Positions 10,342 through 42,215 of a DNA stretch of 64,000 bases are shown piece after piece (the stretch's first letter is position 1; the number at the start of each line of letters is the position of its first letter). Location of the stretch: contig JANMAM010000021.1 in the NCBI GenBank assembly GCA_031359795.1, positions 8,542 to 72,541 of the forward strand. The letters are read 5' to 3'. The DNA comes from Gemmatimonadaceae bacterium. GTDB lineage: Bacteria > Gemmatimonadota > Gemmatimonadetes > Gemmatimonadales > Gemmatimonadaceae. Position numbers and translations under genes: made by a program. The notes beneath the pieces are model-generated. The model had not been told where the DNA came from and did not search any database. It worked only from the letters and a program-made list of their open reading frames with translations.

Positions 10342-10458
10342 AGGTCTCGGATTGTCAGGGTGCAGCCAGTCCTGCCGCACGCGAAATAAACTCTCCGGGC
10401 AGCGATCCCGCGCCCCCGGGCTGTGCGCCGGGGACCCCGGCTGCCATCTTTGGCAGTC

Positions 10459-23010: not shown

Positions 23011-23721
23011 ATGCGTCCAGCCACGAGCGCCGCGCCCCGCGAAATGGAAACATCGAACCCCCCACTCGTCCGGCCGCCGCGCAGGTCCCACCCCGACGGC
23101 GCAGTCAGATACGACTCCCGGAATTACGCGTTGCTGAACCGCCGGTTCGAGACTGCGCGTAACATGCGGCGCGTCGTTCGTTACCTCCGGCCTCGTTGCG
23201 GGGACCGACTGCTCGAGATTGGCTGTGGCCGCGGCTGGCTCACCCAGCGTGTCCAGGACCTCTGCCCGGCGACGTGCGGGGTCGATGTCAATCCGCAGTC
23301 GATCGCGCACGGGGTCACGTCAGGCCTGAGCGTTATGGACGCGGTGCAGCTCGACTTTGAGGATCAGCGATTCGACAAGCTCTACTCCCTTCACGCGATC
23401 GAGCACATCGTCGACGCGGAGTTGGCGGTCGCCGAGATGTTCCGCGTGCTCGTGCCGGGCGGGCGCGCACTCCTCGTGTATCCGGCCGAACTCATTCGCG
23501 GAATGTACGCCGTCCCCGGTGCGTGGCTGGGGTTCGGCAGTCCGCTGCTCGCCCGGAAGCTGCACGTTCACAAGTTCACCCCGTCGCGCATCCGCCGAGT
23601 CGCCGCCCTCGCCGGATTCCGGCACGTCGAGAGCGCGTTCGACCTTTTCTTCACTCCCCAGTTCATGACGGTGCTTGAGAAGCCGCAGGTCGAGCAAGCC
23701 GCGATAAGCCGTAGGCGGTAA
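23011..23721 (+). CDS. Class I SAM-dependent methyltransferase
   Basis: Motif I LLEIGCGRGWL, a post-I acidic residue and a Methyltransf_11-like layout (DKLYSLHAIEHI ... LVPGGRALLV). GGAGA lies 5 nt upstream of the ATG. Confidence 0.75.
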   Translation: MRPATSAAPREMETSNPPLVRPPRRSHPDGAVRYDSRNYALLNRRFETARNMRRVVRYLRPRCGDRLLEIGCGRGWLTQRVQDLCPATCGVDVNPQSIAHGVTSGLSVMDAVQLDFEDQRFDKLYSLHAIEHIVDAELAVAEMFRVLVPGGRALLVYPAELIRGMYAVPGAWLGFGSPLLARKLHVHKFTPSRIRRVAALAGFRHVESAFDLFFTPQFMTVLEKPQVEQAAISRRR

Positions 23722-23801: not shown

Positions 23802-24233
23802 TCAGACGTTCAGCCGCTGATCGTAAGGCACCGACTCGCCGTGCTCGACGTGGCGCTTCAGCACTCGCAGGTACATTGCCCAGCAGAAGCTCGAGATCCG
23901 GTAGTGATCGTCAGGCACTCGCCAGCCGGTGTGTGCGAAACGAAGCCAGGTGCCGTTGTCGCGTTCCTCGAGATGGAAGGAGACGCGCGTATGCATCCAG
24001 TCGTCGTCGGCGCGCGTCATCTCAAGCTCGAACGAGCGGTCCTGGTCGCAATGCGCGACGCGCGCGCGCCAATCGTACTTCGGCCCGAAGTAGAGGTGGT
24101 AGTCGAGACCGACCACGGGGGTGCCTGACGAGCGCTCCGTCCACCAGCTGTCCAACCCGCGAGGAGTCGTGACGCTTTCGAACACGACCGCGGCCGAAGC
24201 CGCGATCGGAAAGTCGTGGAGGATGTCAGGCAT
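23802..24233 (-). CDS. SRPBCC/AHSA1-family small protein
   Basis: 143 aa starting MPDILHDFPIAASAAVVFESVTTPRGLDSWWTE, with the composition typical of Activator-of-Hsp90-ATPase-homolog-like SRPBCC proteins. The upstream part of the 426-aa track ORF is a shadow of the next gene. Confidence 0.65.
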   Translation of the reverse strand: MPDILHDFPIAASAAVVFESVTTPRGLDSWWTERSSGTPVVGLDYHLYFGPKYDWRARVAHCDQDRSFELEMTRADDDWMHTRVSFHLEERDNGTWLRFAHTGWRVPDDHYRISSFCWAMYLRVLKRHVEHGESVPYDQRLNV

Positions 24234-24241
24234 CGCGAAGA

Positions 24242-25183
24242 TCAAACCCGCAGCTTGCTCAGGTAGTTGTAGCTCGACTCGATCGACGCGAACGGACCGC
24301 CCGCGTAGTCCGCGGCGTTGTCGTGCTCGATGATGTAGTGCTTGATGCCCGCTTCCGTGCGATGCGCGAAGATCCGCTTCCAGTCGATGGTGCCGCTGCC
24401 CACCGGCACCATCTCGTTGTTCGGCGCGCCGCGCGAATCCTTCACGTGCACGAGCTGGAACCGGCCCGGGTGTTTCGCGAACCAGGCGAGCGGATCCTGC
24501 CCGGCCTTCGCTGCCCAGTAGAGATCCATCTCCATCGCGACGTACCTCGGATCGGTCTCGCCGACCAGCACCTCGTACGGCACGGTCCCTTCGACCAGCG
24601 CGAACTCGAAGTCGTGGTTGTGATATCCGAGTTTGAGGCCGGAGGCCGCCAGCTGGGCGCCGACATCGTTCATGCTCCGCGCGAGGTTGCGCCACTCGGC
24701 GAGCGTGCCACGCGACTTTTCCTCGACCCATGGGTTGATGATGTACGCATGGCCGATGGTTTTCGCCGCCGCGATTACCGCAGCCGGATTGGCTTGAAGC
24801 ATCTGGAGCGGGACGTGCGCGGACGGCGCGGTGAGCCCGTTCGCATCGAGCATCGCCCGCACCTGTTCCGGCGTCCGGTCGAAGTATCCCGCGAACTCCA
24901 CCTGCGTGTAGCCGGTGCGAGCGACGCGCGCGAGCGTCGCCGCCATGTCTCGCTTCATCTCGTCGCGCAGCGTGTAGAGTTGCAGGCCGATCGGCGCGAC
25001 CATCGAGCCGGCGCTCGCGCCTGCACCGGTGGCAATCGCGCTTTCGCCACCAGTGGCCGATCCGTTCGGCCCTCGCGCGCATCCGAAAACTCCCATCCCT
25101 CCTGCGGCGAGGGCAGCGCCGCCGAGGGTGGTGAGGAAGGCCCGCCGGTCTTGCGTTGCGGGGCGGTCAGTAGCGTCGGACAT
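24242..25183 (-). CDS. Xylose-isomerase-like TIM-barrel protein (sugar phosphate isomerase/epimerase family), TAT-exported
   Basis: Twin-arginine signal DRRAFLTTLGGAALAAG. IGLQLYTLRDEM...GYTQVEFAGYF is typical of this family. GGAGG lies 4 nt upstream of the ATG. Confidence 0.8.
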   Translation of the reverse strand: MSDATDRPATQDRRAFLTTLGGAALAAGGMGVFGCARGPNGSATGGESAIATGAGASAGSMVAPIGLQLYTLRDEMKRDMAATLARVARTGYTQVEFAGYFDRTPEQVRAMLDANGLTAPSAHVPLQMLQANPAAVIAAAKTIGHAYIINPWVEEKSRGTLAEWRNLARSMNDVGAQLAASGLKLGYHNHDFEFALVEGTVPYEVLVGETDPRYVAMEMDLYWAAKAGQDPLAWFAKHPGRFQLVHVKDSRGAPNNEMVPVGSGTIDWKRIFAHRTEAGIKHYIIEHDNAADYAGGPFASIESSYNYLSKLRV

Positions 25184-25331
25184 CGTGCCTCCGTGAGAGT
25201 TGGCGTGTTCGGCGCGAAGATGGCGCCCCCCGGGGCCGGGCGCAATGCGTCATCCACGCTCCCGCGCGCTCTCGCGGCGGGCAGAGGGGACTGGTACGTT
25301 ATCGGCCACACTCTTCACGGACTCCGCTTCC

Positions 25332-26084
25332 ATGACTCGTCACGCCGCATCGATAGTTCGCGCCACCGTCGTGTTGACCACCGCCGCCGCGATCGCCGGC
25401 TGCGTCACCCAGAAGTCGACGGCGAGCGATAGCGCCTCGCCTGACAGCACCAGAGCAACGACAGCCATGACTTCTTCATCGCCGGACACCGCATGGCGCT
25501 CGCTGATCGACAGCGCGGGCAGCGCGTGGCGCAGCTACAAGCAGCCGACCTTTCCGGCCAACTGGAAGGTCGCGGACGGAATGCTGACCAAAACCGGAAC
25601 CGCGGATGACCTGATCACGAAGGACGGGTTCGGGGATTTCGAGCTGGCCTGGGACTGGAAGCTCGGCAAGGCCGGGAACGCGGGTGTGTTCTATCGCGCG
25701 ACGGAGGAATACGCGAAGGTCTACTGGAGTGGCAGCGAGTACCAGCTGCTCGACGATGCCGCCCACGTCGACGCGACGAACCGCCGCACCGCGGCCGGCG
25801 CAAACTACGAACTCTACCCGTCGCCGGCCGGAGTCGTGAAACCGGCGAACGAATGGAACTCGTCGCGCATCGTCGCAAAGGGTCCGCACGTCGAGCACTG
25901 GATGAACGGACAGAAACTGCTCGAGTACGAGATGTGGAGCCCGGATTGGGAAGCGAAGGTCAAGGCGAGCAAGTTCAAGGACTGGAAGAATTATGGGCGC
26001 GCGAAGAGCGGCCACATCGCGATCCAGGGTGACCACGAGGGAACGCTCGCCATTCGCAACGTGCGCATCCGGGAGCTCCGATGA
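25332..26084 (+). CDS. DUF1080 (3-keto-disaccharide hydrolase-like) lipoprotein
   Basis: Lipoprotein signal [27 protein letters not shown]1080 blocks are present: W...[52 protein letters not shown] and GHIAIQGDH. The track ORF start at 25200 is rejected. Confidence 0.8.
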
Positions 26085-27370
26085 ACCCCGCAACTCGTAC
26101 CGTCGATACCACGCCTGGCGCGAGCAGCGGCGCGCGCAGCCGCCTCGCGGCAATGATGTTCCTTCAGTACTTCGTCTGGGGCGCGTGGTTCGTGACGATG
26201 GGGACCTACCTCTCACGAACGCTGCACTTCACCGATCAGCAGGTCGGCCTCGCGTATGGTGCGACCGCGATCGCCGCGCTCGTGTCTCCCTTCTTCATCG
26301 GAATGGTTGCGGACCGCTTCTTCGCGAGTGAGAAGCTGCTCGCGGTCCTCCACATACTCGGCGCGGTGCTGCTCTACCTCGTCTCGATGCAGACGCGGTT
26401 CGCGACATTCTATCCACTGCTGATCCTCTATGCGCTCTGCTACATGCCGACGCTGAGCCTGACGAATTCAATCTCCTTCCACCACGTCAAGGATCCGGCG
26501 CGGGAATTCCCGCTCATCCGCGTGCTCGGCACCATCGGATGGATCGTCGCCGGGATCATCGTCGGCAAGGTGCTCCACGCCGACGCGCTCGCGACACCGA
26601 TGCGCGTCGCCGCCGGTGCATCGCTCCTCCTCGGCATCTTCTCGCTCGTGCTGCCGCACACCCCGCCAAAAGCGTCCGGCGAGCCGTTCACCATCCGCGA
26701 TGCCTTCGGGTTCGACGCGCTCCACCTGCTACGCGATCGCACATTCCTGACGTTCGTCATCGGCTCGTTCCTGCTCTGCATACCGCTGCAGTTCTACTAC
26801 GCGTTCACGAACCCCTTCCTCAACGAAATCGGCGCGCCGGACCCCGCCTTCATCCAGACCTTCGGCCAGATGTCGGAGATCGGCTTCATGCTGCTCCTGC
26901 CGTTCGCGCTCCGGCGATTCGGCATTCGCGGCATCATGCTCGGCGGCATGCTCGCCTGGGCGCTCCGATATTTCGCGTTCAGCCGCGGCGATGCCGGGGC
27001 GGGGATGTGGCTCATCTACACCGGGATCCTCCTCCACGGCATGTCCTACGACTTCTTCTTCGTCGCGGGCCAGATCTACACTGACGAGAAGGCCGGTGCC
27101 CGCGTGAAGGGTGCAGCGCAGGGGTTGATCAACTTCGTCACGAACGGCGTCGGCTACTTCATCGGCGCGTACGTTTCAGGCCGGGTCGTCGAGGCGTACC
27201 GGACGACGTTGCCTGGCGGTGGAGCGGGGCACGACTGGCGCGCGATCTGGATAGTGCCCGCGGTGGCGGCTCTGGCTATCGCGATCGTGTTTGCGTTCCT
27301 CTTCCGCCCGAGAACAGCGGTAAGACCGGACGAACCCATCCGTCCGTCAACCGGACCCGTTACCGCGTGA
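26081..27370 (+). CDS. MFS transporter, nucleoside:H+ symporter-like family
   Basis: The N-terminus [20 protein letters not shown] is characteristic of the NupG/YegT-like MFS group. It has about 12 TM segments. ATGA start/stop overlap with the DUF1080 gene. Confidence 0.8.
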
Positions 27371-27383
27371 CCCCTCCCGGGCC

Positions 27384-27559
27384 GGCTATGTCACTTCGAT
27401 GAGAGATGATCGAGGCTCCGATAAAGGGACTGCAGAGGAGCGACGAAACAACGATTGCGGTTACCTGCACACCCGTCGTTGCAGTACCGCCCGGCGGGTT
27501 CGCTCCTCTCTCAGCTCTTGATCGGATCCTCGATCATCTCTCATCGCAGTGACAGAGCC
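27384..27559. repeat. Long imperfect palindrome (about 176 nt) filling the convergent intergenic gap
   Basis: A perfect 19-bp inverted repeat, CGATGAGAGATGATCGAGG at 27397-27415, pairs with 27528-27546. Pairing extends outward to about 27384/27559. It extends inward through CTG-AGAGGAGCG (27430-27442) with CGCTCCTCT-CAG (27501-27514), and through CAACGA/TCGTTG (27449-54/27476-81). Confidence 0.8.
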
Positions 27560-27575
27560 AGTCCATGCGCACCGA

Positions 27576-29183
27576 TCAAAGCTCCCAGCCCTTCCGATAC
27601 TCTCTCGTCAGGAACGCGTTGGCCGCCGGAACGTTAGTCACGTTCATCGCCGCGCTGTCGTAGTAGATCTTCGCGCCCTGTCCCGCCCTCAGCGCCACGA
27701 GCCCGAGCAGCATCGTCTCCGTCAGCGCCGAGGCATATTCGAACGGCGCACTCGCCGTCGCCTCGCCCTTGCACGCCTGGGCGAAGTTCACTTCGTGCGG
27801 CACGAGGATCCGCGGCACCGTGCGCGGCACCGCCTCGGCCGCTGCCGTCAGCGACTCCGGGTAGACCTTTGGATCGTCCCCGTAGGTCGCGTACGTCAGG
27901 ATCCCCTTGTCGCCGACGAAGATGCCGCCGCCGCCGGCGGGGAGCTCGAGCTCGTCGGGATAAAACGGCACCCGCGGCGGAAGCAGGCCGCCGTCGTACC
28001 AGTGCAGCCGGACCGCCGGCCGCGTGCCGCGCGCCGCGAACTCGTAGTGCACCGTCGTCGCCAGCGGGTACGACGCGACCGCGAACGGGAGCCCGCCCCA
28101 CGGTGTCGATGACGCGGTGACGCTCGTCGGCTGATCGAGGCCGAGCGCCCAGTAGGGCTGGTCGAGCAGGTGCGCGCCCATGTCGCCTAACGCTCCGGTG
28201 CCGTAATCCACCCACCCCCGCCAGCTGAACGGGTGGTAAGCCGGGTGATAGGGAACAACCGGAGCGGGGCCGAGGAAGAGATCCCAGTCGAGGCCGTTAG
28301 GGACCGCCTGCGGGTCGGCGGCCATCGCCTTCAGCACCGCGTTGTCCACCGTGCGCATCCCCCACCGCGGCGGCGCGGGCGGGAGCGGCGCAGCAGCCGG
28401 GGGAACCCTCGCCGGAGGTGGTGTCTGCGCCGCCGTCTGTTGCTGGATGGTCTGCTGCTGCGCTGCCTTCTCTCGCGCCGCCTGCTGCGCCGCCTGCGCG
28501 ACGTCCTGACCGGGACGCGGAATTCCCTGCGCCCAGTAGCGCTGCGGCCGGTCGGTCCAGATGTGGACGTCGCGGACCGGGCCGATCACTCCTGCGCCAA
28601 TCAACTCGACGATCCGCCGCGTCCCCTCGCGGGAGTGCCCCTGGTTGCCCATCTGCGTCACGCGCTTCGTCTCACGCGCCGTCCTCGCCAGCAGCCGCGC
28701 TTCATGCACGGAGTAGGTCAACGGCTTCTGCACGTAGACGTGCTTGCCCGCGCGCATCGCCGCGACCGCGACCGCGGCGTGCGTATGATCGGGCGTCGCA
28801 ATCACCACCGCGTCGATGCCTTTCTCCTTCTCGAGCATCTTCCGGAAGTCGGTGTACCTTCGAGCCTTGCCGTATGCGTCCTTGAGGCGGAGCGCCAGCG
28901 GATTGACGACGCCGGTCGCCGGGTCCGGCCGGAGCCGGTTCGCCAGCTGCCGCTCGACGAAGGCAAAGTCGACGTCGCAGATCGCGACGATGTTCTCGTC
29001 GAGAAATTGCGACGCGTTCTCCATCCCCATCCCTCCCGCGCCGACGATTGCCACGTCGAGCCTGTCGCTCGGCGCCCGGTAGCCCCTCCCGCCGAGCACG
29101 AACCTCGGCACGATCATCACGCCTAACGCGGCCTTCGCGCCGTCCTCCAGGAAATCCCGGCGCGAGTAATCCTTTCCCGACAT
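27576..29183 (-). CDS. Gfo/Idh/MocA-family oxidoreductase, TAT-exported
   Basis: TAT signal SRRDFLEDGAKAALGVM, a Rossmann start VAIVGAGGMGM and a C-terminal alpha/beta domain. A Q/A/P-rich low-complexity insert (QAAQQAAREKAAQQQTIQQQTAAQTPPP) is present. The ATG at 29181-29183 is preferred (AAGGTG upstream); the alternative is the GTG at 29192. Confidence 0.8.
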   Translation of the reverse strand: MSGKDYSRRDFLEDGAKAALGVMIVPRFVLGGRGYRAPSDRLDVAIVGAGGMGMENASQFLDENIVAICDVDFAFVERQLANRLRPDPATGVVNPLALRLKDAYGKARRYTDFRKMLEKEKGIDAVVIATPDHTHAAVAVAAMRAGKHVYVQKPLTYSVHEARLLARTARETKRVTQMGNQGHSREGTRRIVELIGAGVIGPVRDVHIWTDRPQRYWAQGIPRPGQDVAQAAQQAAREKAAQQQTIQQQTAAQTPPPARVPPAAAPLPPAPPRWGMRTVDNAVLKAMAADPQAVPNGLDWDLFLGPAPVVPYHPAYHPFSWRGWVDYGTGALGDMGAHLLDQPYWALGLDQPTSVTASSTPWGGLPFAVASYPLATTVHYEFAARGTRPAVRLHWYDGGLLPPRVPFYPDELELPAGGGGIFVGDKGILTYATYGDDPKVYPESLTAAAEAVPRTVPRILVPHEVNFAQACKGEATASAPFEYASALTETMLLGLVALRAGQGAKIYYDSAAMNVTNVPAANAFLTREYRKGWEL

Positions 29184-29212
29184 TGAAGTCACCTTGGCTG
29201 AGTGAGCGCTGC

Positions 29213-30463
29213 CTAACGCGGCTTCCAGGTGCCGCGGGCCACGGCCGGCCGGAACGAATCGATTCCGGGGGCGGGATAGTCGAGCGTTCGCCCCTCCTCG
29301 GCGCTCTGGTACGCCGTCATCAGCATCTCCACCACTTCGACACCGTCATCGAACGTCAGGCGCGCCTTCTCCTTGCCCTGGAAGACCCGCACGAAATGAC
29401 GGTCCTCGCCGTCGTAGCCGTAGGCGATCGGCTCGCTTGGCACCACCGGCATCACCCCCTGCTCGGCGTTCTGCTTCTCGACCAGGTCTTCGCCCGCCTT
29501 GCCCGTCACCTCGCGCGAGAAGAACAGCTCCAGCCCCGAGTCGAGCGAGTTCCAGCGCATCGAGTACTCGGGTCCGAGCAGCTCGGCCGAGAGCCGAAGC
29601 CCGGCGCCGACGAAGCTCCACGACGTCGTCGCCTCGCCGAGCACGGTGTGCCCGTCCTCTGTCTCGAACTCGATCATCAGGCTGGCAAAATCCTCGGACG
29701 GTTGCTTCGTGTAGTCCACCCCCATCGTCTTCTTCAGCTGCTCGGCGTATTCCTTGCGCGACCACTTGAGGCTGGCGATGTGCGCGGTGACCCGTTTCGG
29801 CTTGACCGTGCCTAACGCCTTCTTCGGGTCGGTGAGCAGGTGCCGCACGAGCAGCGCCGAGTGGCACATCATGTCGTTGAGCACCCCGCCGCCCTGCAGC
29901 TCGCCCTTCCAGAACCAGGGCGCATGCGGGCCGGCATGCTCCTCGGCGGCGCGCGCCAGATAGGGACGCCCCGTCGTCGCCGCGCCGCGCGCCCAGAGCA
30001 GCTCGCGGCCGGTCTCGACGTGCGGCGAGAAGAGCTGGTTCTCGAGGTACCCCGTCGCCAGTCCGGCTTTCTTCACCATCGCGGCGACCTTCTTCGCCTC
30101 GGCGACGTTGCGCGCGAGCGGCTTCTCGCAGGCGATCCCCTTGAGGGTTCCCTTGCCGCTCTCGATCGCGCTGCAGATCTCTTCGATGTTCTCGACGCGA
30201 GCCGAGTTCGGGCCAGTCACCCAGAGCGCGTCGATCTTCGGATCGGCGACCATCTCCGTGATCGAGCGATACGCCTTGGCCTCGCCGACGTCGAGCTTGC
30301 GCGCCAGCGCCGCGGCCTCGCCGGCGTTCTTCGCATTCGGGCTCCAGCAGCCGAGGACGTCGGCGTCGCGGACGCCGCGCCAGGCCTGAATGTGGAAGCG
30401 TGCGTTGAAGCCGCTCCCGACGAATCCGACACCGAGTCGGGCGTTAGGCACGGGCGCCTCCAC
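29213..30463 (-). CDS. Gfo/Idh/MocA-family oxidoreductase
   Basis: RLGVGFVGSGFNARFH Rossmann N-terminus and EKPLARN motif. GTG start. The stop codon lies inside the CGTTAGG motif. Confidence 0.8.
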   Translation of the reverse strand: MEAPVPNARLGVGFVGSGFNARFHIQAWRGVRDADVLGCWSPNAKNAGEAAALARKLDVGEAKAYRSITEMVADPKIDALWVTGPNSARVENIEEICSAIESGKGTLKGIACEKPLARNVAEAKKVAAMVKKAGLATGYLENQLFSPHVETGRELLWARGAATTGRPYLARAAEEHAGPHAPWFWKGELQGGGVLNDMMCHSALLVRHLLTDPKKALGTVKPKRVTAHIASLKWSRKEYAEQLKKTMGVDYTKQPSEDFASLMIEFETEDGHTVLGEATTSWSFVGAGLRLSAELLGPEYSMRWNSLDSGLELFFSREVTGKAGEDLVEKQNAEQGVMPVVPSEPIAYGYDGEDRHFVRVFQGKEKARLTFDDGVEVVEMLMTAYQSAEEGRTLDYPAPGIDSFRPAVARGTWKPR

Positions 30464-30481
30464 TGGCTGCTCGGGCGTCGC

Positions 30482-31159
30482 TCATGATTTGCGCCCGGCG
30501 GCGAGCGACGCATCGTACTCGGCGTAACTGACGCCCAGCTTCCGCAGTGCAGGTTCCGGGCATCCGTTCCAGTTCGGGTTGAAGACGTTGCCGATGTATT
30601 GCAGATCCTTCCATCCCGTCGCGCTCGAATAGAAGCCCGAGGCGATCGAGTCACGAAAACGATTGAAGAACGCGACGCCGGTGCTCATTCCTGGCGCGGC
30701 CCTGGTCGGCCAGGCGATGTCGTCGAGCACGAGCCGGCGCTGCGCGTCCGTCGCCCCGACGAACCCCGCACCGAAGCGGCGGCGCGTTTCCGTGTCGAGC
30801 CAGGCGAGCCCGCCGCGCATCGCGAGGCGGCCGTCGTCGCCGGTGGTCTCGTCCAGCATCATGAAGTCCACGAACTCGGGCGCTTTCGCATCGGTCGCGC
30901 TCCCCGAGCGGTCGTCGCGCGGGATCACGTAGTCCGCGAGGAGCCGCACCGTCCGCCACTCGCGCGCGGTGAAGAATTTCGGGACGTACGCCGCGTCCTC
31001 GGATGCCGGCGGCAATCCGGCAACGTAGCGCGTCGCGCGCTCGACGCTGGCGCTGTTCCACCCGAGCGCGGCGAACACCGGCGCCATCCCGATCAGCCGC
31101 AGCGCCTCGCGGCGCGCCGGCAGCTCGGGCGCGGCGCCTGTCTCGTCGATGTCGCTCAC
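30482..31159 (-). CDS. Gluconate 2-dehydrogenase subunit 3-like small subunit, TAT signal
   Basis: ARREALRLIGMAPVFAALG signal and the FFTAREWRTVRLLADYVIPRD block typical of this family. The GTG start overlaps the TGA of the upstream GMC oxidoreductase gene (GTGA). Confidence 0.7.
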   Translation of the reverse strand: MSDIDETGAAPELPARREALRLIGMAPVFAALGWNSASVERATRYVAGLPPASEDAAYVPKFFTAREWRTVRLLADYVIPRDDRSGSATDAKAPEFVDFMMLDETTGDDGRLAMRGGLAWLDTETRRRFGAGFVGATDAQRRLVLDDIAWPTRAAPGMSTGVAFFNRFRDSIASGFYSSATGWKDLQYIGNVFNPNWNGCPEPALRKLGVSYAEYDASLAAGRKS

Positions 31160-32958
31160 AATGCACCTGCCTTGCGCTGCTCGGTGATGTAGTCGCTGGT
31201 GCGCCAGGCGAGCGCGAGGATCGTCCACGTCGGATTCTTGTCGGCCTGTGTCACGAACGGCCCTCCATCGGCGACGAACAGATTCCTGCAGTCGTGGGCG
31301 CGGCAGTTGGAGTCGAGGACCGACTTCTTCGGGTCGCTGCCCATCTGGGTGCACCCCAGCTCGTGAATGATCTGGCCCCCCGCCGCGATGCCGTAGCCCT
31401 CCTCCCGCGTCGGCATCTTCGACGCCACCTCGCCTCCCATCTCCGAGATCAGTGCCCGGAACGTCGTCTGCATGTGGCGAATCTGGTTGTATTCGTTATC
31501 CGTGAACTGCCAGTGGAAGCGCAGCGCCGGAATCCCCCAGCGGTCGACGACCGTCGGATCGAGGTCGCAGTACGAGTTCTCGTTGGGCAGCATCTCGCCG
31601 CGGCCGGAGAACCCGATCTGCGCGCCGTAGTACTTCCGATAGTCGGCCTTGAGCTGGGCGCCGTAACCGCCGCCACCCGGATAGTTCTGGATCCCGCCTA
31701 ACGCGCCGTACTGCGGCTGCGAGAGCCCGCCCCACACTTCGATATGGTAGCCGCGCGGGAAATCCAGCTTCGCGTTGTCGAGCCACCAGGGCATGTAGAC
31801 GTGCATCCCGCCGACGCCGTCCTCGTTGTGCGGCACATGGTCGACCATCGACGGAATGAACCCGGCGACGTCGGTGCCGGTCGTATCGGTGAGTCCCTTG
31901 CCGACCCGGCCGCTCGAGTTGCCGAGGCCCTGGGGAAACATCGACGACTTCGAGTTGAGGAGGATCCGCGCCGACTCGCAGGCGCTCGCCGCCAGCACGA
32001 CGACCTTCGCGTTCACGTGCCGGTCTTCACCGGTGTTCTTGTCGATCCAGGTGACTCCCGTCGCGAGTCCATCCTTTCCGATCGTTACTTCGCGAGCCAT
32101 CGCGTTGGTGATCAACGTCAGGCGTCCGCTCGCGAGCGCCGGTGCGATCAGCACGTCGGGGCTCGAGAAGTTGGACTTCGTCATGCAGCCACGACCGCAT
32201 TGCCCGCAGTAGTGACATGCCTGACGGCCGGGCAACGGCTTGGTGAGGATCGAGAGGCGCGATGGAATGCATTTCACGCCGAGCTTGTCGGACGCCTTCT
32301 TGACGAGGACTTCGTAGCAGCGCGGGCGCGGCGGTGGCTGGAACCTGCCGTCCGGGTTGTTGCGCATTCCCTCGGCGCTCCCGAATACCCCGATCAGGTC
32401 GTCGATGCGGTCGTAGTACGGCGACATGTCGTCGTACGAGATCGGCCAGTCGTCGCTCATTCCGTCTTTCGTCCCGCCCTTGAAATCATCGGGTCCGAAG
32501 CGGAGCGAGATGCGTCCCCAGTGATTCGTGCGCCCGCCCAGCATCCGGGCTCGCCACCACATGAACTTCGATCCCGTCGCGACGGTGTAGGGCTCACCCT
32601 CGACCGCCCAACCGCCATCGCACGCGTCGAATTCGCCGAAAGGGCGCCGCGTACTCGATGCGCCGCGCCGCGGCGACGCATAGGCGGGCATGAGCATCTT
32701 CGAGTTTTTCGAGGCGTACCACTCCGCTCCGGCCTCGAGCATCACGACGTTTGCGCCGGCCTTCGTCAGCGCGTACGCGGACATTCCTCCCCCCGCACCG
32801 GAGCCGACGATGCAGACATCATACTCGGTACGACGACGCTGAACCTGCACGGCGCTCCTCGGTCGGGGTGAGCGGCCTAAGCTACGCCTGCTCCCGGCCG
32901 TCGCAACCACCGCCGCGTCTGTTCCCGCCAACTCGCGAAGTTGACCAATGGTTGACAT
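31156..32958 (-). CDS. GMC-family FAD-dependent oxidoreductase
   Basis: FAD-binding YDVCIVGSGAGGGMSAYALTKAGANVVMLEAG and a C-terminal GMC block (HELGCTQMG...CRNLFVADG). The start is set at the ATG 32956-32958; the track start at 33006 would overlap the divergent gene. Confidence 0.85.
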   Translation of the reverse strand: MSTIGQLRELAGTDAAVVATAGSRRSLGRSPRPRSAVQVQRRRTEYDVCIVGSGAGGGMSAYALTKAGANVVMLEAGAEWYASKNSKMLMPAYASPRRGASSTRRPFGEFDACDGGWAVEGEPYTVATGSKFMWWRARMLGGRTNHWGRISLRFGPDDFKGGTKDGMSDDWPISYDDMSPYYDRIDDLIGVFGSAEGMRNNPDGRFQPPPRPRCYEVLVKKASDKLGVKCIPSRLSILTKPLPGRQACHYCGQCGRGCMTKSNFSSPDVLIAPALASGRLTLITNAMAREVTIGKDGLATGVTWIDKNTGEDRHVNAKVVVLAASACESARILLNSKSSMFPQGLGNSSGRVGKGLTDTTGTDVAGFIPSMVDHVPHNEDGVGGMHVYMPWWLDNAKLDFPRGYHIEVWGGLSQPQYGALGGIQNYPGGGGYGAQLKADYRKYYGAQIGFSGRGEMLPNENSYCDLDPTVVDRWGIPALRFHWQFTDNEYNQIRHMQTTFRALISEMGGEVASKMPTREEGYGIAAGGQIIHELGCTQMGSDPKKSVLDSNCRAHDCRNLFVADGGPFVTQADKNPTWTILALAWRTSDYITEQRKAGAL

Positions 32959-33032
32959 AGCCGCTCGGGCCGCGTACGCTGGCTGCAATAGACCCTGCTC
33001 CAGCATTGAACTCCTTACCCCCCGGAGGTCTC

Positions 33033-35996
33033 GTGCGCGTCACGCGTGTTCTCGTCGGTCTTGTCTCTGCGCTCGCGCTCGCCGCGGCGTCGGCGTCGGC
33101 GCAGCAGCAGCAGCGGCGCATCACCGGCCGCGTTGCCGAGTCGGGCAGCGGGGCTCCGCTCGCCATGGCGAGCATTGTCGTCACCGGCACCACGCTCGGG
33201 ACGCGCACCAACGAGGCGGGGGAGTTCTCCCTGCTCGCACCCGACGCCGACGTGCAGCTCGTCGCCCGGCGCATCGGATTCAAGCAGGCGACCGTTCGCG
33301 TTCCGCGCGACCAGGCGCAGGCCAATCTCTCTCTCGAGCGCGATGTGCTCATGCTCGAGGAGCAGGTGGTCACCGGCGAGAATACAAGCGTCTCGCGGCG
33401 CAACGCCGCCAACGACGTCGCGACGGTAAGCAACGTCGAGCTGACGCGCGCGCCGACGCCGACGATCGAGAACGCGCTCGCCGGCAAGATCGCCGGCGCG
33501 ACGGTGTCGCAGAACTCGGGCGCGCCAGGTGGTGGCCTGCAGATCCAGCTTCGCGGCGTCACCACGATCAACGGCTCGACGGATCCACTCTACATCGTCG
33601 ACGGCGTGATCGTCAGCAACGACGCGATCCCCAGTGGCGCCAACGCAATCACCGCCGCGGCCGCGGGCGGCAACGCGTCGCCGCAGGACAATGCCGTGAA
33701 CCGGATGGCTGACTTCAATCCCGCCGACATCGAACGCATCGAGGTGCTCAAGGGCGCGTCTGCATCGGCCATCTATGGATCGAAGGCCTCCAACGGCGTG
33801 ATCATCATCACGACCAAACGAGGAGCGGCAGGCGCGACGCAGTTCAGCCTCGTCCAGCGGGTCGGCACGCAGTCGGCGTCAAATGAGATCGGCTCGCGCC
33901 GTTGGACGCTCGCTGGCGTCTATGACTACTTCGGGCCAAGAACGGCGGCGGACACCGCGCGCTATCGCACGCTCTATGGCGACGGGTCGACGACCAACTA
34001 CGAGAAGCTGCTCTTCGGCGCGCACGATCCGTCGTACGAGACGAATCTCAGTGCGCGCGGTGGAACCGACGCGACGCGCTACTTCGTCTCGGGACTGCTC
34101 AAGCGCGACGCCGGCATCATGTCGGGAACGGGTTACGACAAGCAGTCGGTGCGCGCGAACCTCTCGCAGGCATTCAGTCCGCGCCTCAACCTCGACGTCA
34201 ACACCAACTTCATCCACAGCAACGCACAGCGCGGGCTCACCAACAACGACAACAGCGGCACCAGCTTCTACATGGTGCTTCCGTTCACGCCGAGCTTCGC
34301 CAGGCTCCAGCCGGTGAACGGCGCGTATCCCGCCAACCCGTTCGAGCGCAGCAACCCCATCCAGACGCGTGACCTCCTCCAGAACCAGGAGAATGTCTAC
34401 CGGTTCACCGGCTCGGCGACGGGGCGCTTCTCGGTGTTCGCGCGCGAACGCCAGACGCTCGCGCTCAACCTGACCGGCGGCATCGATCAGTTCTCGCAGC
34501 GCAACGACATCTTCTCGCCGAACGAACTGCTCTATGAGCCGCAGGATGGACTTCCTGGCACGACCGTCCGCGGCTCGACCGGCAACGTCAACTCGAACCT
34601 CAACCTCAGCGCCGTCCACACCTTCACCCCGGCCAGCGGATGGCTCACCGCGACGACGTCGGCAGGCGTACAGCGCGAGCGGCGCGACCTCGACGGTGCC
34701 AGCATCCTGACGCGCGGGCTCATCCCCGGGCAGCGTGGTGTCGACCAGGGCTCGAGCGTCGCCGTCGCCCCCGTTAGGCAGCTGGTCAAGGACTTCGCGT
34801 TCTTCGGCCAGGAAGAGGTGCTGCTGCTCGACCAGCGCCTGCTCGTGACCGGCGCCGTCCGCGCCGACCGCAGCACGAACAACGGCGACATCAACAAGTT
34901 CTACTTCTTCCCGAAAGCGTCCGCATCGTACCGCGTACCCGACCTCGCGCCATGGATGGACGAGGCGAAGGTGCGCTTCGCGTTCGGCCAGTCCGGCCTG
35001 CCCGCGATCTATGGCGCGAAGTTCACCTCCCTCGAAACGACCGTGTTCGACGCCGAGACCGGCGTACAGGTTGGTCTGGTCGCTGGCGACCCGAATATCC
35101 GGCCCGAGCGGCAGACCGAGATGGAAGGTGGACTCGACTTCCAGTTCTTCGGGGGGCGCTCGCTCCTCACCGTCACCGGCTACCAGAAGGAGATCAGCGA
35201 CCTGATCCTGCTGCGCCGCCTCGCACCGACGAGCGGGTTCCAGGACCAGTACTTCAACGGCGCGGAGCTCCGTAACCGCGGCGTCGAGGTCACCGGTGCA
35301 ATCACGCCGATCAACACCGACAGGACGACCTGGATCTCGCGCGCGACCTTCTCGCGCAACGTCAGCGAGATCACGAAGCTGCCAGTGCCGGCCTTCGAGA
35401 CCGGCGGCTTCGGCGCCAATCTCGGCGCCTTCCGCATCGAGGAGGGGAAGTCCGCGACACAGATCGTCGGGCACACCCTCCTCGCCGATGGCTCGCAGCC
35501 GACCGTGCAACTCGGCGATGCGGCGCCCGATTTCCAGATGGCGTTCGCCAACGAGTTGAACTGGGGAGACTGGCGGCTCTACGGGCTCGTCGACTGGAAG
35601 AAAGGCGGCGACGTCATCAACCTCACCCAATTCCTCTACGACGCAGCTGGCAACAGCAAGGACTACTCGGAAGATCCGAACTCGGGGGGCCAGCGGCGCT
35701 TCAGCCGCTGGGCGTCGGGTTTCACGAAGGAGTACGTTCAGGACGGCAGCTTCGTGAAAGTTCGCGAAATCTCGCTCGCCTACCGGCTGCCGTCAGGCCT
35801 GACGCGCTATCTTGGCGCCCGCGCCCGATCGGCCCGACTCGAGTTGAGCGGCCGGAACCTGCTCACATTTTCCGACTATCCCGGGCTGGACCCGGAGGTG
35901 AGCAACTTCGGAAACCAGGCGATCGCCAGGAACATCGACGTCGCCCCGTATCCGCCGAGCCGCAGCTACTTCGTCTCTCTCAACGTGGAGTTCTGA
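33033..35996 (+). CDS. SusC/RagA-family TonB-dependent outer-membrane receptor
   Basis: Signal peptide, a carboxypeptidase-regulatory-like domain (ITGRVAESGSGAPLAMASIVV) and the plug motif IERIEVLKGASASAIYGSKASNGVIIITTKRG. The terminal ...YFVSLNVEF ends in Phe. GTG 33033 follows GGAGG; the track start TTG 33006 is the alternative. Confidence 0.9.
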   Translation: MRVTRVLVGLVSALALAAASASAQQQQRRITGRVAESGSGAPLAMASIVVTGTTLGTRTNEAGEFSLLAPDADVQLVARRIGFKQATVRVPRDQAQANLSLERDVLMLEEQVVTGENTSVSRRNAANDVATVSNVELTRAPTPTIENALAGKIAGATVSQNSGAPGGGLQIQLRGVTTINGSTDPLYIVDGVIVSNDAIPSGANAITAAAAGGNASPQDNAVNRMADFNPADIERIEVLKGASASAIYGSKASNGVIIITTKRGAAGATQFSLVQRVGTQSASNEIGSRRWTLAGVYDYFGPRTAADTARYRTLYGDGSTTNYEKLLFGAHDPSYETNLSARGGTDATRYFVSGLLKRDAGIMSGTGYDKQSVRANLSQAFSPRLNLDVNTNFIHSNAQRGLTNNDNSGTSFYMVLPFTPSFARLQPVNGAYPANPFERSNPIQTRDLLQNQENVYRFTGSATGRFSVFARERQTLALNLTGGIDQFSQRNDIFSPNELLYEPQDGLPGTTVRGSTGNVNSNLNLSAVHTFTPASGWLTATTSAGVQRERRDLDGASILTRGLIPGQRGVDQGSSVAVAPVRQLVKDFAFFGQEEVLLLDQRLLVTGAVRADRSTNNGDINKFYFFPKASASYRVPDLAPWMDEAKVRFAFGQSGLPAIYGAKFTSLETTVFDAETGVQVGLVAGDPNIRPERQTEMEGGLDFQFFGGRSLLTVTGYQKEISDLILLRRLAPTSGFQDQYFNGAELRNRGVEVTGAITPINTDRTTWISRATFSRNVSEITKLPVPAFETGGFGANLGAFRIEEGKSATQIVGHTLLADGSQPTVQLGDAAPDFQMAFANELNWGDWRLYGLVDWKKGGDVINLTQFLYDAAGNSKDYSEDPNSGGQRRFSRWASGFTKEYVQDGSFVKVREISLAYRLPSGLTRYLGARARSARLELSGRNLLTFSDYPGLDPEVSNFGNQAIARNIDVAPYPPSRSYFVSLNVEF

Positions 35997-35999
35997 GCC

Positions 36000-37358
36000 A
36001 TGACCACCAGCATACATGCGCGTCGTCTCGCGCTGCGGGCGGCCGGGCTGATCCTCGCCGCCGTTGCCCTGCATGCCTGCAAGGATGCCCTCGTTCCCGA
36101 TCTCAATAACCCGAGCCTCGAAGGCATCGTCTCCAACCCGACCCGCGCGCAGGTACAGACCATGGCGCGGGGAGTGCTCGACGGAAACCGTGCGACCCAG
36201 GGCGGGTTCATCCGCGATCTCGAGATCATCGGGCGTGACGCCTACAACCTCGATGCGGCCGATCCGCGCTGGGTGACGGAGCTGCTCATCAACCTCGACC
36301 CCGGTGGCTTCGGGGCCGCGCACTGGTTCTTCCGCTATCGGAACGTAAAGAGCGCCAACATCATGATCGCCGCTGTCGGTACGTCAGGCGCACTTAGCGC
36401 CGCCGAGAAATCGGCCGCGATCGGATTCGCGCAGACGATCAAGGCGCTCGATCTCCTCGCCGTCGAAGAAGCGCATGACACCGCCGGCACCGGCGCTGAC
36501 GCTGGCGCGACGGCGGCCGACCTGACGGCGATCCTCTGCCGCGACAATGCACTCCTCCGCATCTCCGCATTGCTCGACACCGCCAGGACCAATCTGCTCG
36601 CTGGTGGCGCGGCTTTCCCCTTCGCGATGCCCGGCGGCTTCGCTGGCTTCGACACACCGGCCCTGTTCCTCAAGTTCAATCGCGCAATCAAGGCGCGCGC
36701 GGAGATCTATCTCGGACCCAGCGTGGCCTCGCATTACACCACCGCACTCGCCGCGCTCAGTGAGTCGTTCATCGACACGACCGCTTCGCTCGACCTCGGC
36801 GTCTATCACCAGTACAGTCTGGCCGCCGGGGATCGGAGCAACCCGCTGTTTCAGGACCCGGCGACGACGAACTTTCGCGCACACCCGTCGGTGGTCGCGA
36901 ACGCCGAGGCGGGCGACCGGCGCCTCACCCGCAAGACGATGATCGGCGATGTGAAGACGTACCAGGGCCTGTCATCGAACATCATCTTCACCGTCTACGC
37001 GTCACCGACCGCCTCGATCCCGGTCGTGCGCAACGAGGAGCTTGTTCTCCTTCGTGCCCAGGCGAACATCGGACTGAACAACCTCGCCGCGGCAAGCCGG
37101 GACCTCAACTACATCCGCGTTCGCTCGGGAGGACTCGCGGCGAAGACGTACGCCACCGCCGCGGCCGCGCTCGACCAGCTCCTGTACGAGAAGCGCTACT
37201 CGCTGCTCTGGGAGAGCGGCTCGCGCTGGATCGACACGCGGCTCTACGGCCGGCTCGCGACGCTGCCGAAGGACGCGCCGACCCACAAGGTCCATCCGAA
37301 CTTCCCGATCCCGCAGGATGAAGTACTGGCACGCGGCGGCTCGGCGCGCTGCCAGTGA
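36000..37358 (+). CDS. RagB/SusD-family outer-membrane lipoprotein
   Basis: It lies immediately downstream of the SusC-like gene, with a 3-nt gap. Lipobox ALHAC is present. The size and helical composition are typical of SusD-like proteins (RYSLLWESGSRWIDTRLYG). Confidence 0.75.
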   Translation: MTTSIHARRLALRAAGLILAAVALHACKDALVPDLNNPSLEGIVSNPTRAQVQTMARGVLDGNRATQGGFIRDLEIIGRDAYNLDAADPRWVTELLINLDPGGFGAAHWFFRYRNVKSANIMIAAVGTSGALSAAEKSAAIGFAQTIKALDLLAVEEAHDTAGTGADAGATAADLTAILCRDNALLRISALLDTARTNLLAGGAAFPFAMPGGFAGFDTPALFLKFNRAIKARAEIYLGPSVASHYTTALAALSESFIDTTASLDLGVYHQYSLAAGDRSNPLFQDPATTNFRAHPSVVANAEAGDRRLTRKTMIGDVKTYQGLSSNIIFTVYASPTASIPVVRNEELVLLRAQANIGLNNLAAASRDLNYIRVRSGGLAAKTYATAAAALDQLLYEKRYSLLWESGSRWIDTRLYGRLATLPKDAPTHKVHPNFPIPQDEVLARGGSARCQ

Positions 37359-37411
37359 GCGCGCGGTCCGCGAAGGAAGCGCGTTCGGATTTCGCGGTAG
37401 GTGATACGCTT

Positions 37412-37535
37412 CTTGAGCTTCAACAGCTTTAAACCACAGGGTGCACCGAGCGAGAACGGCGGAGCGCCGCCCCGGCTCGGTGTACCCTGTGCACCCTGTG
37501 GTTAATAGCTGTTGCTCAAGGTGAACGGCGGAGCG
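37412..37535. repeat. Compound hairpin element between convergent SusD-like and GNAT genes
   Basis: CTTGAGCTTCAACAGCTTTAAACCACAGGGTGCAC (37412-37446) pairs imperfectly with GTGCACCCTGTGGTTAATAGCTGTTGCTCAAG (37489-37520). There is an inner CCGAGC/GCTCGG stem. The 13-mer GAACGGCGGAGCG is directly repeated at 37454-37466 and 37523-37535. Confidence 0.7.
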
Positions 37536-37543
37536 TCGACGCT

Positions 37544-38116
37544 TCACGCCGCGCCGTCAGCCGCGACGAGGTCGCGTGACATTCGAAGGCAGTCCATCAG
37601 AATCTCACCGGAGAGCGGGACGACGACCGGCTCGACGACCGTGAAGCCTAACGTGCGATAGAGCGGCTCGCCGGGCAGCGTCGCGACCAGCTCGAGGCGG
37701 CGGAACCCCGCCGCGTACGCTGCACGGGCGCAGCACCTGAAGAGCATCCGGCCGAGCCCTTGTCGCGCATGCGCGGGATGGACGTAGAACGCCCGGATCC
37801 GCGCCGGCTCGGTCGCCGGGTCGAGCTGGTCATCGACGTCGGACTTGTATCGATCTCCCCCGAACAGCGTGCGCCGCGCGCTCCATCCTCCGGCGGCGAC
37901 GATCTCGCCGCCATCCTCCACGACATGGTACGTTCGATCGCGAATGAGCTGCGAGTCCACGCCGAACATGTGGCGGAGCGACGCGTCGATTTGCGCGTCG
38001 CTGTAGTAACCGCGCCCGAGCCCGCGAACCGACGCGTCGATCAGCACCGCGATGGCGGCGGCGTCATCGAGGGTCGCGAGGCGCAAAAGGCGTGAGGTCG
38101 ACTGTGGTGCGTCCAT
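37544..38116 (-). CDS. GNAT-family N-acetyltransferase
   Basis: Acetyl-CoA-binding motif VHPAHARQGLGRMLF and overall GNAT layout. The start is set at ATG 38114-38116 (MDAPQSTS). Confidence 0.8.
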   Translation of the reverse strand: MDAPQSTSRLLRLATLDDAAAIAVLIDASVRGLGRGYYSDAQIDASLRHMFGVDSQLIRDRTYHVVEDGGEIVAAGGWSARRTLFGGDRYKSDVDDQLDPATEPARIRAFYVHPAHARQGLGRMLFRCCARAAYAAGFRRLELVATLPGEPLYRTLGFTVVEPVVVPLSGEILMDCLRMSRDLVAADGAA

Positions 38117-38266
38117 GTCGCTTCGATCGCGATGGTTGTCGCGGCTCCAACAACCGAGCCGGAGTGAAGCGTGAGCCCTTCGCCCACGGCGATCGGTTTC
38201 GCCGGCGCTTGACACGCATCAATGTCGCCTATAGACTCCCAATCACAACTGATTGCTCGTGGTGAT

Positions 38267-40746: not shown

Positions 40747-41019
40747 ATGGCAGTCACTCTTCATCTCCCGACCATTCTCGCCAAGCTCGCCCCCTCGCGC
40801 GCGATCGAGGCGAACGGCGCGACCGTCGGCGAAGTCGTCTCGGAGATCGCGGGCCGCTACCCGGCGCTCGCGCCGCGGCTGCGTGACGAGCATGGCAATC
40901 CGTATCCGTTCGTCACCTTCTATCTGAACGACGAGGACATCCGCTTCCACGGCGGCTTCGCCGCCGTCGTCGCCGATGGTGACGAGATCGCGGTCGTCCC
41001 GGCGATCGCGGGGGGCTGA
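40747..41019 (+). CDS. MoaD/ThiS-family ubiquitin-like sulfur-carrier protein (ends in Gly-Gly)
   Basis: 90 aa with a beta-grasp-like pattern. The C-terminus ...DEIAVVPAIAGG is followed directly by the stop. It lies immediately upstream of the E1-like adenylyltransferase gene. Confidence 0.8.
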   Translation: MAVTLHLPTILAKLAPSRAIEANGATVGEVVSEIAGRYPALAPRLRDEHGNPYPFVTFYLNDEDIRFHGGFAAVVADGDEIAVVPAIAGG

Positions 41020-41022
41020 ACG

Positions 41023-42204: not shown

Positions 42205-42215
42205 GTGAGACAGCG

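Follow-up and report, generated by a model that had tools for sequence, protein, structure and literature searches.

The oxidation-elimination-hydration-reduction route of glycoside breakdown is known from gut Bacteroidota and Agrobacterium, and here we compare the described systems with a cluster of nine genes at positions 24242-37358 of a 64,000-nucleotide stretch of DNA from a Gemmatimonadaceae bacterium (contig JANMAM010000021.1 of assembly GCA_031359795.1; this whole stretch is referred to below as the window). In the BT2156-BT2160 system of Bacteroides thetaiotaomicron and the AL1-AL5 system of Alistipes (PMC8121099; preprint 10.1101/2024.03.25.586180), AL1/BT1 is a secreted TIM-barrel lyase that acts on beta anomers, AL2/BT2 is a DUF1080 lipoprotein, AL3/BT3 is a dehydrogenase exported by twin-arginine translocation (TAT) whose tightly bound NAD is re-oxidised by reducing 3-keto-glucose, and AL4/BT4 is cytosolic and dispensable in vitro (preprint 10.1101/2024.03.25.586180). 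The GlycDH operon of Agrobacterium tumefaciens/Rhizobium additionally contains the Agrobacterium O-glycoside beta-eliminase AtOGE (Protein Data Bank (PDB) entry 8bvk, with H134 as a catalytic residue), a second TIM-barrel protein (AtHYD) and a Gfo reductase, and GlycDH of Rhizobium sp. GIN611 was produced together with an adjacent "TAT-pathway signal protein" (PMC10628242). The Caulobacter lacABC genes lie together with genes for DUF1080 proteins, a transporter, a reductase and two "epimerases", all of which matter for lactose or salicin use (PMC9007349).

By comparing these systems with the window, we found that the seven genes at 24242-32850 probably encode a two-compartment 3-keto-glycoside pathway, that these enzyme and transporter genes are conserved as a module although their order within it is shuffled, and that a SusC/SusD pair (hereafter SusC/D) came to lie beside this module in the window's own genus only. 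Gemmatimonadota are abundant and rarely cultured, and their carbon metabolism is poorly known; our results place the route in soil members of the phylum as a common single-copy module. The parts and the chemistry are already published (PMC8121099, PMC9007349, PMC10628242, preprint 10.1101/2024.03.25.586180). What is new here is the quantification of the module in Gemmatimonadota, the presence of both dehydrogenase types without a cytochrome subunit, and a SusC/D neighbour that is not conserved. The seven-gene unit joins the GlycDH-type and BT/AL-type halves, and suggests roles for the two parts that are understood least, a cytosolic Gfo/Idh/MocA enzyme (Gfo2) and a major facilitator superfamily (MFS) permease.

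Genes were called by third-position G+C and the proteins were scanned against Pfam and NCBIfam, which recovered all nine genes in the arrangement described by an initial annotation of this DNA that had been made from the sequence alone. The features of the cluster are as follows:

24242-25183, minus strand: TIM-barrel protein (PF01261), with TAT motif DRRAFL and then VFGC
25184-25331: divergent control region between the TIM gene and the DUF1080-MFS operon, as read from the sequence
25332-26084, plus strand: DUF1080 lipoprotein (PF06439), lipobox IAGC
26081-27370, plus strand: MFS permease of the Nuc_H_symport family (PF03825)
27379-27564: long imperfect palindrome in the convergent gap between the MFS and Gfo1 genes, 65-nt arms, 82% complementary
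27576-29183, minus strand: Gfo1, a Gfo/Idh/MocA enzyme with TAT motif SRRDFL
29213-30463, minus strand: Gfo2, a Gfo/Idh/MocA enzyme (PF01408, PF22725, PF02894) without a signal peptide
30482-31159, minus strand: Gluconate_2-dh3 small subunit (PF13618) with an RR motif
31156-32850, minus strand: GMC flavoprotein (PF00732, PF05199) without a signal peptide
32851-33032: divergent control region between the GMC operon and SusC/D, as read from the sequence
33033-35996, plus strand: SusC/RagA-type TonB-dependent transporter (TIGR04056, TIGR04057)
36000-37358, plus strand: SusD-like lipoprotein, lipobox LHAC, SusD/RagB fold of its model
37421-37514: hairpin 3' of the SusD gene at the convergent junction with a GNAT gene, 26-nt arms, 92% complementary

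The TIM-barrel protein belongs to PF01261 (E 8e-16), and among PDB chains it matched AtOGE (8bvk, 2.9e-33), 8tct (6e-32), and 8tcd and 8tcs (1e-27). Taking reference residues from PMC10628242 for AtOGE and from preprint 10.1101/2024.03.25.586180 for BT1/AL1, we found that H66, H132, H134, E161, D163, H189 and E233 of AtOGE are identical in the window protein (as H123, H188, H190, E218, D220, H246 and E286, respectively), that the substrate tryptophan of BT1/AL1 is kept as W223, and that in the alignment all metal, substrate and catalytic-glutamate residues of BT1/AL1 are retained. Together with an N-terminus in which the TAT motif is followed by what is possibly a lipobox, these matches make the protein a candidate 3-keto-glycoside 1,2-lyase (beta-eliminase) of the AtOGE/BT2156/AL1 type. 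The initial annotation had also likened it to the C-glycoside-cleaving systems of DgpA and CarA, an analogy that is weaker than the one with O-glycoside cleavage, since the protein is of the OGE/BT1 type without a lid, a type that failed to cleave C-glycosides in both studies (PMC10628242; preprint 10.1101/2024.03.25.586180). Only one TIM gene is present in the cluster, the genome's other TIM paralogues lying on other contigs, and no second TIM-barrel paralogue was found in the cluster as a counterpart of the AtHYD hydratase; whereas the GlycDH operon has AtHYD, hydration here would presumably fall to the DUF1080 protein.

The DUF1080 lipoprotein matched the full PF06439 profile (E 8.6e-44) and the PDB entries 4jqt (6e-38), 8tda (8e-23) and 8rr2 (1e-22), and is a candidate 3-keto-alpha-glycoside lyase and 2-hydroxy-3-keto-glycal hydratase of the BT2157/AL2 type. 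In BT2, the channel residues are E103, N134, E164, Q166, Y190, K245, Q273 and H275 (preprint 10.1101/2024.03.25.586180). The MFS permease encoded directly downstream, a member of PF03825 (E 1e-118) scoring 393 bits against TIGR00889 (under the cutoff of 446), is usually paired with DUF1080 in relative loci and would act as the inner-membrane importer of the released sugar or keto-sugar.

Gfo1 matched the NCBIfam model NF058561 (BT_2158_fam, "glycoside 3-dehydrogenase") with an E value of 7.7e-128 and 427.1 bits over three stretches, and in the PDB it matched AL3-type structures (8tdf, 3e-80; 8tdh, 8e-77). The sugar pocket of AL3 is retained: with a chain index offset of 29 applied in the residue matching, Q161, R192, W195, D248, H252 and Y349 of AL3 are identical in Gfo1 as Q181, R212, W217, D334, H338 and Y434. 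Residues 228-289 of Gfo1 (window positions 28317-28502) form a 62-residue low-complexity insertion rich in Q, A and P, which sits between the Rossmann and C-terminal domains and is missing from AL3 (8tdf). We consider Gfo1 a candidate TAT-exported glycoside 3-dehydrogenase of the BT2158/AL3 type. Gfo2 would be a cytoplasmic 3-keto-sugar reductase, likened to BT2159/AL4 by family type and signal-less state; when Gfo2 was used to search the ESM Atlas, only generic Gfo/Idh/MocA clusters were returned, mostly from Gemmatimonadota.

The window thus has four enzyme types in common with the BT/AL system, and keeps both the AL3 sugar pocket and the metal and catalytic residues of BT1/AL1. The predicted compartments are also alike, with an exported TIM protein, a DUF1080 lipoprotein, a TAT-dependent Gfo1 and a Gfo2 that is not exported. 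The two differ in that the BT/AL hosts belong to another phylum and the window host is aerobic, in that the window adds to the BT/AL set an MFS permease and a putative GMC/Fe-S (iron-sulfur) flavoprotein together with its TAT partner, and in that Gfo1 has the 62-residue insertion and a score under the BT_2158_fam equivalog cutoff. The oxidative (3-keto) glycoside-cleavage chemistry put forward in the initial annotation is upheld insofar as the enzymes fall in subfamilies for which such cleavage has been demonstrated by experiment, including those of GlycDH and LacA/LacC for the GMC protein and its TAT partner, and keep key residues. That annotation had also allowed for oxidoreductases of unrelated validated families, and here the matches to inositol, levoglucosan and gluconate enzymes were all far under their cut-offs. 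It is accordingly very improbable that the cluster catabolises a cyclitol or an anhydrosugar, as IolG/IolE-like inositol or Lgd-like levoglucosan enzymes would. Weak NCBIfam matches do point that way (TIM to IolE with 66.7 bits, the two Gfo proteins to IolG with 62 and 56 bits and to levoglucosan dehydrogenase with 58 and 44 bits), but the curated cut-offs of 290, 355 and 650 bits are all far above these scores, and the best matches are 3-keto-glycoside enzymes. Moreover, those pathways are cytoplasmic, whereas four proteins here are exported, and the DUF1080 protein and the GMC/small-subunit pair have no role in them.

The GMC flavoprotein is a component that the BT/AL system does not have. 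Its best PDB match was the catalytic subunit of the Burkholderia cepacia FAD-dependent glucose dehydrogenase (FAD-GDH; 6a2u_B, 1.2e-43), followed by fructose dehydrogenase (FDH; 2e-30), so that the FAD-GDH gamma-alpha(-beta) complex (6a2u) and the Gluconobacter FDH (7w2j) are its best solved relatives. Like these enzymes, the window pairs a signal-less catalytic subunit with a small TAT subunit, and the GMC protein carries a cysteine-rich motif of the Fe-S type, C212-x2-C215-x2-C218-x3-C222, which is invariant in 28 orthologues. In enzymes of this class, a cysteine-rich region serves to bind an Fe-S cluster, and the motif may do likewise here. The small subunit is a member of PF13618 (E 1e-24), and its RR pair is invariant in the same number of orthologues (28); it had no sequence match to any PDB chain.

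We modelled the GMC protein and the small subunit as a complex, which received a score of 0.92, while the best of 3 controls received 0.00. Among solved complexes, 58 of 80 attained the mark applied to this score, as against 2 of 110 mismatched pairs; these counts hold only roughly here, since the model used alignments built in this analysis. The runs agreed in at least 90% of contacts, and the predicted local distance difference test (pLDDT) of the partner was at least 88. The pass may reflect likeness to the solved gamma-alpha pair of FAD-GDH (6a2u), and is not proof of the complex. In the model, the invariant C178 of the GMC protein (32317-32319) contacts the invariant C200 of the small subunit (30560-30562) with the lowest predicted error, and an inter-subunit disulfide between the two is possible. 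These predictions suggest that the small subunit is a hitch-hiker export partner that would carry the folded GMC flavoprotein to the periplasm.

We infer that the GMC protein is a periplasmic FAD/Fe-S glycoside 3-dehydrogenase, similar to LacA and GlycDH, which together with the small subunit would provide a second, respiratory glycoside 3-dehydrogenase and presumably hands electrons to the respiratory chain. Only gene context points to C3 as the position of oxidation. FAD-GDH and FDH, which have a multihaem cytochrome c subunit, act on C1 of free glucose and on C5 of fructose, respectively, whereas the context of the window GMC points to glycoside C3 and no cytochrome gene is linked to it. 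The GlycDH operon and the window share a GMC protein with a TAT-signal partner, an OGE-type TIM eliminase and a Gfo/Idh/MocA enzyme, and the TIM-GMC-small-Gfo2 core of Gemmatimonadota mirrors that operon; the window GMC is nearer to the FAD-GDH/FDH type with its cysteine-rich motif, GlycDH being taken by description in this comparison. The Caulobacter lacABC locus similarly has a periplasmic GMC-type dehydrogenase beside DUF1080, TIM-type, transporter and sugar reductase genes. LacABC has three components, whereas the Gemmatimonadota clusters have no gene for the third (cytochrome) subunit in or near them, and the Caulobacter description does not include a TAT-exported Gfo1-type enzyme.

The same comparisons bear on whether the GMC/small-subunit pair could instead be a periplasmic free-sugar dehydrogenase acting on aldose C1 or on ketoses, that is, a separate route beside a BT2156-2159-like set. 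The FAD-GDH alpha subunit and the Gluconobacter FDH as best solved relatives, and a small-subunit family named for gluconate 2-dehydrogenase, would fit such an enzyme. However, throughout Gemmatimonadota the GMC gene is most tightly linked to an OGE-type TIM lyase and Gfo2, not to lactonase or gluconate genes, the combination of GMC, TAT partner, OGE lyase and Gfo enzyme is that of the experimentally studied GlycDH operon, and in Caulobacter the use of lactose and salicin requires LacABC with DUF1080 by genetic evidence (PMC9007349). We therefore regard a free-sugar dehydrogenase as improbable. As separate observations, five more GMC paralogues are found on other contigs of the source genome, and nine relative loci contain a second GMC gene, 32-37% identical, in the order GMC2-TIM-GMC-small-Gfo2.

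Returning to the two-compartment 3-keto-glycoside pathway, we propose that a small glycoside or oligosaccharide would be oxidised at C3 in the periplasm, either by Gfo1 with its tightly bound NAD or by the GMC dehydrogenase carried out by the twin-arginine small subunit. The 3-keto group would acidify H2, and the glycosidic bond would then be broken by 1,2-elimination, catalysed by the TIM lyase for beta anomers and by the DUF1080 lipoprotein for alpha anomers, with the DUF1080 protein also performing the hydration. The resulting keto-sugar could be reduced in the periplasm by Gfo1-NADH, which would close a redox-neutral cycle. Alternatively, the MFS permease could import it for reduction by Gfo2 in the cytoplasm, a branch that would be needed when the GMC enzyme has sent the electrons away and left the 3-keto-sugar stranded; such import and reduction would explain the near-invariant GMC-small-Gfo2 linkage. 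Since the AL3 pocket is retained, the substrates are probably glycosides and disaccharides of the gluco or manno type whose 3-OH and 4-OH are free. The proposed C3 oxidation by Gfo1, elimination by the TIM and DUF1080 proteins and hydration by DUF1080 are well supported by homology, conserved active-site residues of Gfo1 and the TIM protein, export signals and gene linkage.

Several points weigh against this assignment. The 427 bits of Gfo1 are below the BT_2158_fam equivalog cutoff of 750, and the 62-residue insertion is present; the shortfall coincides with this insertion and a divergent N-terminus, and Gfo1 is a relative of BT_2158_fam, not a certified equivalog. Gfo2 is without a characterised close relative (best PDB match E 9e-17, and NCBIfam matches far under cutoff), the family of the MFS permease is named for nucleosides, and the closest solved relatives of the GMC protein oxidise sugar positions other than glycoside C3. 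No regulator gene is encoded within the cluster. Likewise, no cytochrome c gene is present in the cluster and none is recurrent in its relatives, CxxCH-bearing open reading frames (ORFs) being found nowhere in the window and in 7 of 80 relative loci, where they are not recurrent.

To determine how far the module is conserved, we queried a genome collection with the GMC protein, which returned at least 592 related stretches, and analysed the best 80, all of which are from Gemmatimonadota and have 69-90% identity. The window proteins were mapped onto these 80 loci by tblastn, with informative loci as denominators, and loci with at least 8 kb on both sides of the GMC gene were counted as long loci (n = 24). 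The occurrence of each partner was as follows:

Small subunit directly after GMC: 72/72 informative loci
Gfo2 downstream of GMC: 56/57 informative loci
TIM in the locus: 45/72 informative loci, directly upstream of GMC in 25
SusC upstream of GMC: 2/54 informative loci
MFS: 19/24 long loci
TIM: 17/24 long loci
DUF1080: 16/24 long loci
Gfo1: 11/24 long loci
All six partners: 11/24 long loci
SusC/D: 0/24 long loci

The GMC-small-Gfo2 arrangement is thus essentially invariant across the Gemmatimonadota loci, and the remaining enzyme and transporter genes are mostly found close to it, in varying order. Of 151 genomes sampled from the phylum, 65 have one copy of the GMC orthologue, and these belong to two families within a single order. 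A Pfam tally of 94 unassigned flanking ORFs from 22 of the long loci showed heterogeneous flanks, and no recurrent regulator, transporter or cytochrome was found among these 94 ORFs. The commonest extra neighbour family in this tally was GH20 beta-N-acetylhexosaminidase, with 4 of the 94 ORFs.

The two loci with SusC upstream of the GMC gene are the closest relatives of the window, with ~90% GMC identity. We established the identity of the pair itself as follows. The SusC protein scored 472.6 bits against TIGR04056 (cutoff 368) and 59.4 against the TIGR04057 signature (cutoff 46.2), and has Plug and CarboxypepD_reg domains and no STN domain. The SusD-like protein matched PF07980 at a sub-threshold level (E 0.005), and because of this we folded it as a model together with 28 relatives. 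The AlphaFold model has a pLDDT of 88.7, and in a Foldseek search against the PDB its top 50 matches were all SusD/RagB, with probability 1.00 and TM-scores (template modelling) of 0.52-0.70. By signature scores and predicted fold, the adjacent pair is a genuine SusC/D pair.

The arrangement of SusC/D with the module is kept only within the window's own genus, in these two loci and in two same-genus genomes, in one of which the contig ends next to SusC. This type of SusD occurs in 78 of 121 genomes of the family (a tally that includes one unpublished genome, on which no conclusion depends), and the next-closest SusC/D pairs, in other genera, have SusC proteins that are 42-62% identical and SusD proteins that are 41-54% identical. 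These pairs adjoin genes for histidine kinases, an S58 peptidase, asparaginase, a Na/H exchanger or DNA polymerase III delta', and have no gene of the GMC module adjacent, the exception being a weak TIM-like match 8 kb off in one locus. In one relative with a complete genome, 1.3 Mb separates the GMC gene from the nearest SusD gene. A comparison of the two divergent control regions of the cluster (25184-25331 and 32851-33032) gave best 12-16-mers that were equalled by 91-96 of 100 shuffles, so that no common operator is evident. No gene for a PUL-type sensor (SusR, hybrid two-component system, or extracytoplasmic function sigma/anti-sigma factor, PUL being polysaccharide utilization locus) was found in the cluster by Pfam scans, and the cluster lacks the SusR or DUF6377 regulator of the BT/AL systems. 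Since the adjacency is limited to the genus, the neighbours elsewhere are unrelated, and there is no shared motif or regulator, the juxtaposition is therefore recent and genus-specific. The initial annotation had presented SusC/D as coupled to the oxidoreductases and had made conservation of their co-occurrence one test of its reading, and outside the genus the co-occurrence is not conserved. The "PUL" coupling exists as physical adjacency, but it is not conserved, and co-function of its two parts is putative.

These results also bear on whether the cluster is a true glycosidase-free oxidative PUL, in which SusC/D would be the dedicated importer and would be co-regulated with the module via the shared divergent control region. 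In its favour, SusC/D and the GMC operon diverge across ~180 bp, all four close relatives that were available keep the arrangement (counting the one with a contig end beside SusC), and TonB-dependent transporters lie near like modules elsewhere (a Hymenobacter plasmid and a Pseudoalteromonas chromid, described below). However, the low counts of SusC upstream of GMC and of SusC/D in long loci, the unrelated genes beside the closest SusC/D relatives in other genera, the 1.3 Mb separation in the complete genome, the lack of a motif common to the two divergent control regions, and the lack of both a PUL-type regulator and an STN domain on SusC all speak against it, and in most of the phylum the module evidently functions with no transporter dedicated to it. 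We consider a dedicated and co-regulated PUL of this kind doubtful, while SusC/D as an importer for this pathway is possible. It is also conceivable, though unlikely in our judgement, that the genus recruited SusC/D to a glycosidase-free periplasmic system with two oxidation modes, namely a cytochrome c-less respiratory GMC/Fe-S enzyme and an NAD-recycling Gfo enzyme, and thereby widened its range to larger glycosides than other members of the phylum are able to import. If such a two-mode system were real, the cell could gain electrons from glycoside cleavage in one mode and keep the process redox-neutral in the other. For genome mining, these observations mean that an adjacent SusC/D pair need not be a conserved partner, and that "glycosidase-free PULs" should be called only after neighbourhood comparison.

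Related loci outside the phylum provide a further comparison. Pseudoalteromonas sp. JSTW carries on its chromid pjat527 (302693-324357) an AraC gene and a Gfo/Idh/MocA-TIM-MFS-DUF1080-GMC-small-TIM string, whose gene content makes it a gammaproteobacterial counterpart of the module; a TonB-dependent receptor is encoded 3 kb upstream of the string. A plasmid of Hymenobacter volaticus (NZ_CP095068.1, 38059-59777) encodes a 55%-identical GMC protein and its Gluconate_2-dh3 partner between two SusC/D pairs, together with GH92 and a LacI regulator; this locus has no TIM, DUF1080 or Gfo genes. TonB-dependent transporters have thus come to lie beside such modules independently in other lineages, and the juxtaposition in the window may be functional. 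A match on an Agrobacterium pAt plasmid and one in Caulobacter rhizosphaerae were considered as reference operons and rejected, their contexts being unrelated.

The window has a G+C content of 65-70%, the assembly of its source genome comprises 3.8 Mb and is 87% complete, and the nearest public relatives of the window genes are from metagenome-assembled genomes of Gemmatimonadaceae or Gemmatimonadota throughout. The cluster is flanked by a methyltransferase gene (23011-23721) and a GNAT gene (37544-38215), and because the flanking genes are housekeeping genes (methyltransferase, GNAT, aminotransferase) its boundaries are clear. Within the cluster, the stop codon of DUF1080 overlaps the start of MFS (ATGA), and the stop of GMC overlaps the start of the small subunit (GTGA); these overlaps point to translational coupling of DUF1080 with MFS and of GMC with the small subunit. 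The palindrome at 27379-27564 fills the whole gap between the MFS and Gfo1 genes and is probably a bidirectional terminator, and the hairpin at 37421-37514 is likely a terminator. The palindrome far exceeds the length of an ordinary terminator. In a promoter and terminator scan of 24000-37700 the counts were at or under shuffled expectation, and no consensus promoter was found in 32851-33032.

The earlier statement that the window has no glycoside hydrolase (GH) or polysaccharide lyase (PL) holds for the cluster itself, in which Pfam and NCBIfam scans showed no GH or PL domain, and fails for the window as a whole. On the minus strand at 1402-10980, a single ORF of 3192 amino acids combines a glycosyltransferase family 2 (GT2) domain, a glucoamylase-like domain (PF10091), a GH94 supersandwich domain and a GH94 catalytic domain; no GH-family domain was seen elsewhere in the window. 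From its domain composition this protein looks like a cyclic beta-1,2-glucan synthase, which would be biosynthetic, lies 13 kb off and appears unrelated to the cluster. Elsewhere in the window, a ThiS-like carrier, a ThiF plus rhodanese (MoeZ-like) protein and a PALP enzyme are encoded in a tight string on the plus strand (40747-43526), and a resistance-nodulation-division (RND) efflux operon on the minus strand (53212-58711) encodes an OEP outer-membrane factor, an HlyD-type adaptor and an AcrB-type pump.

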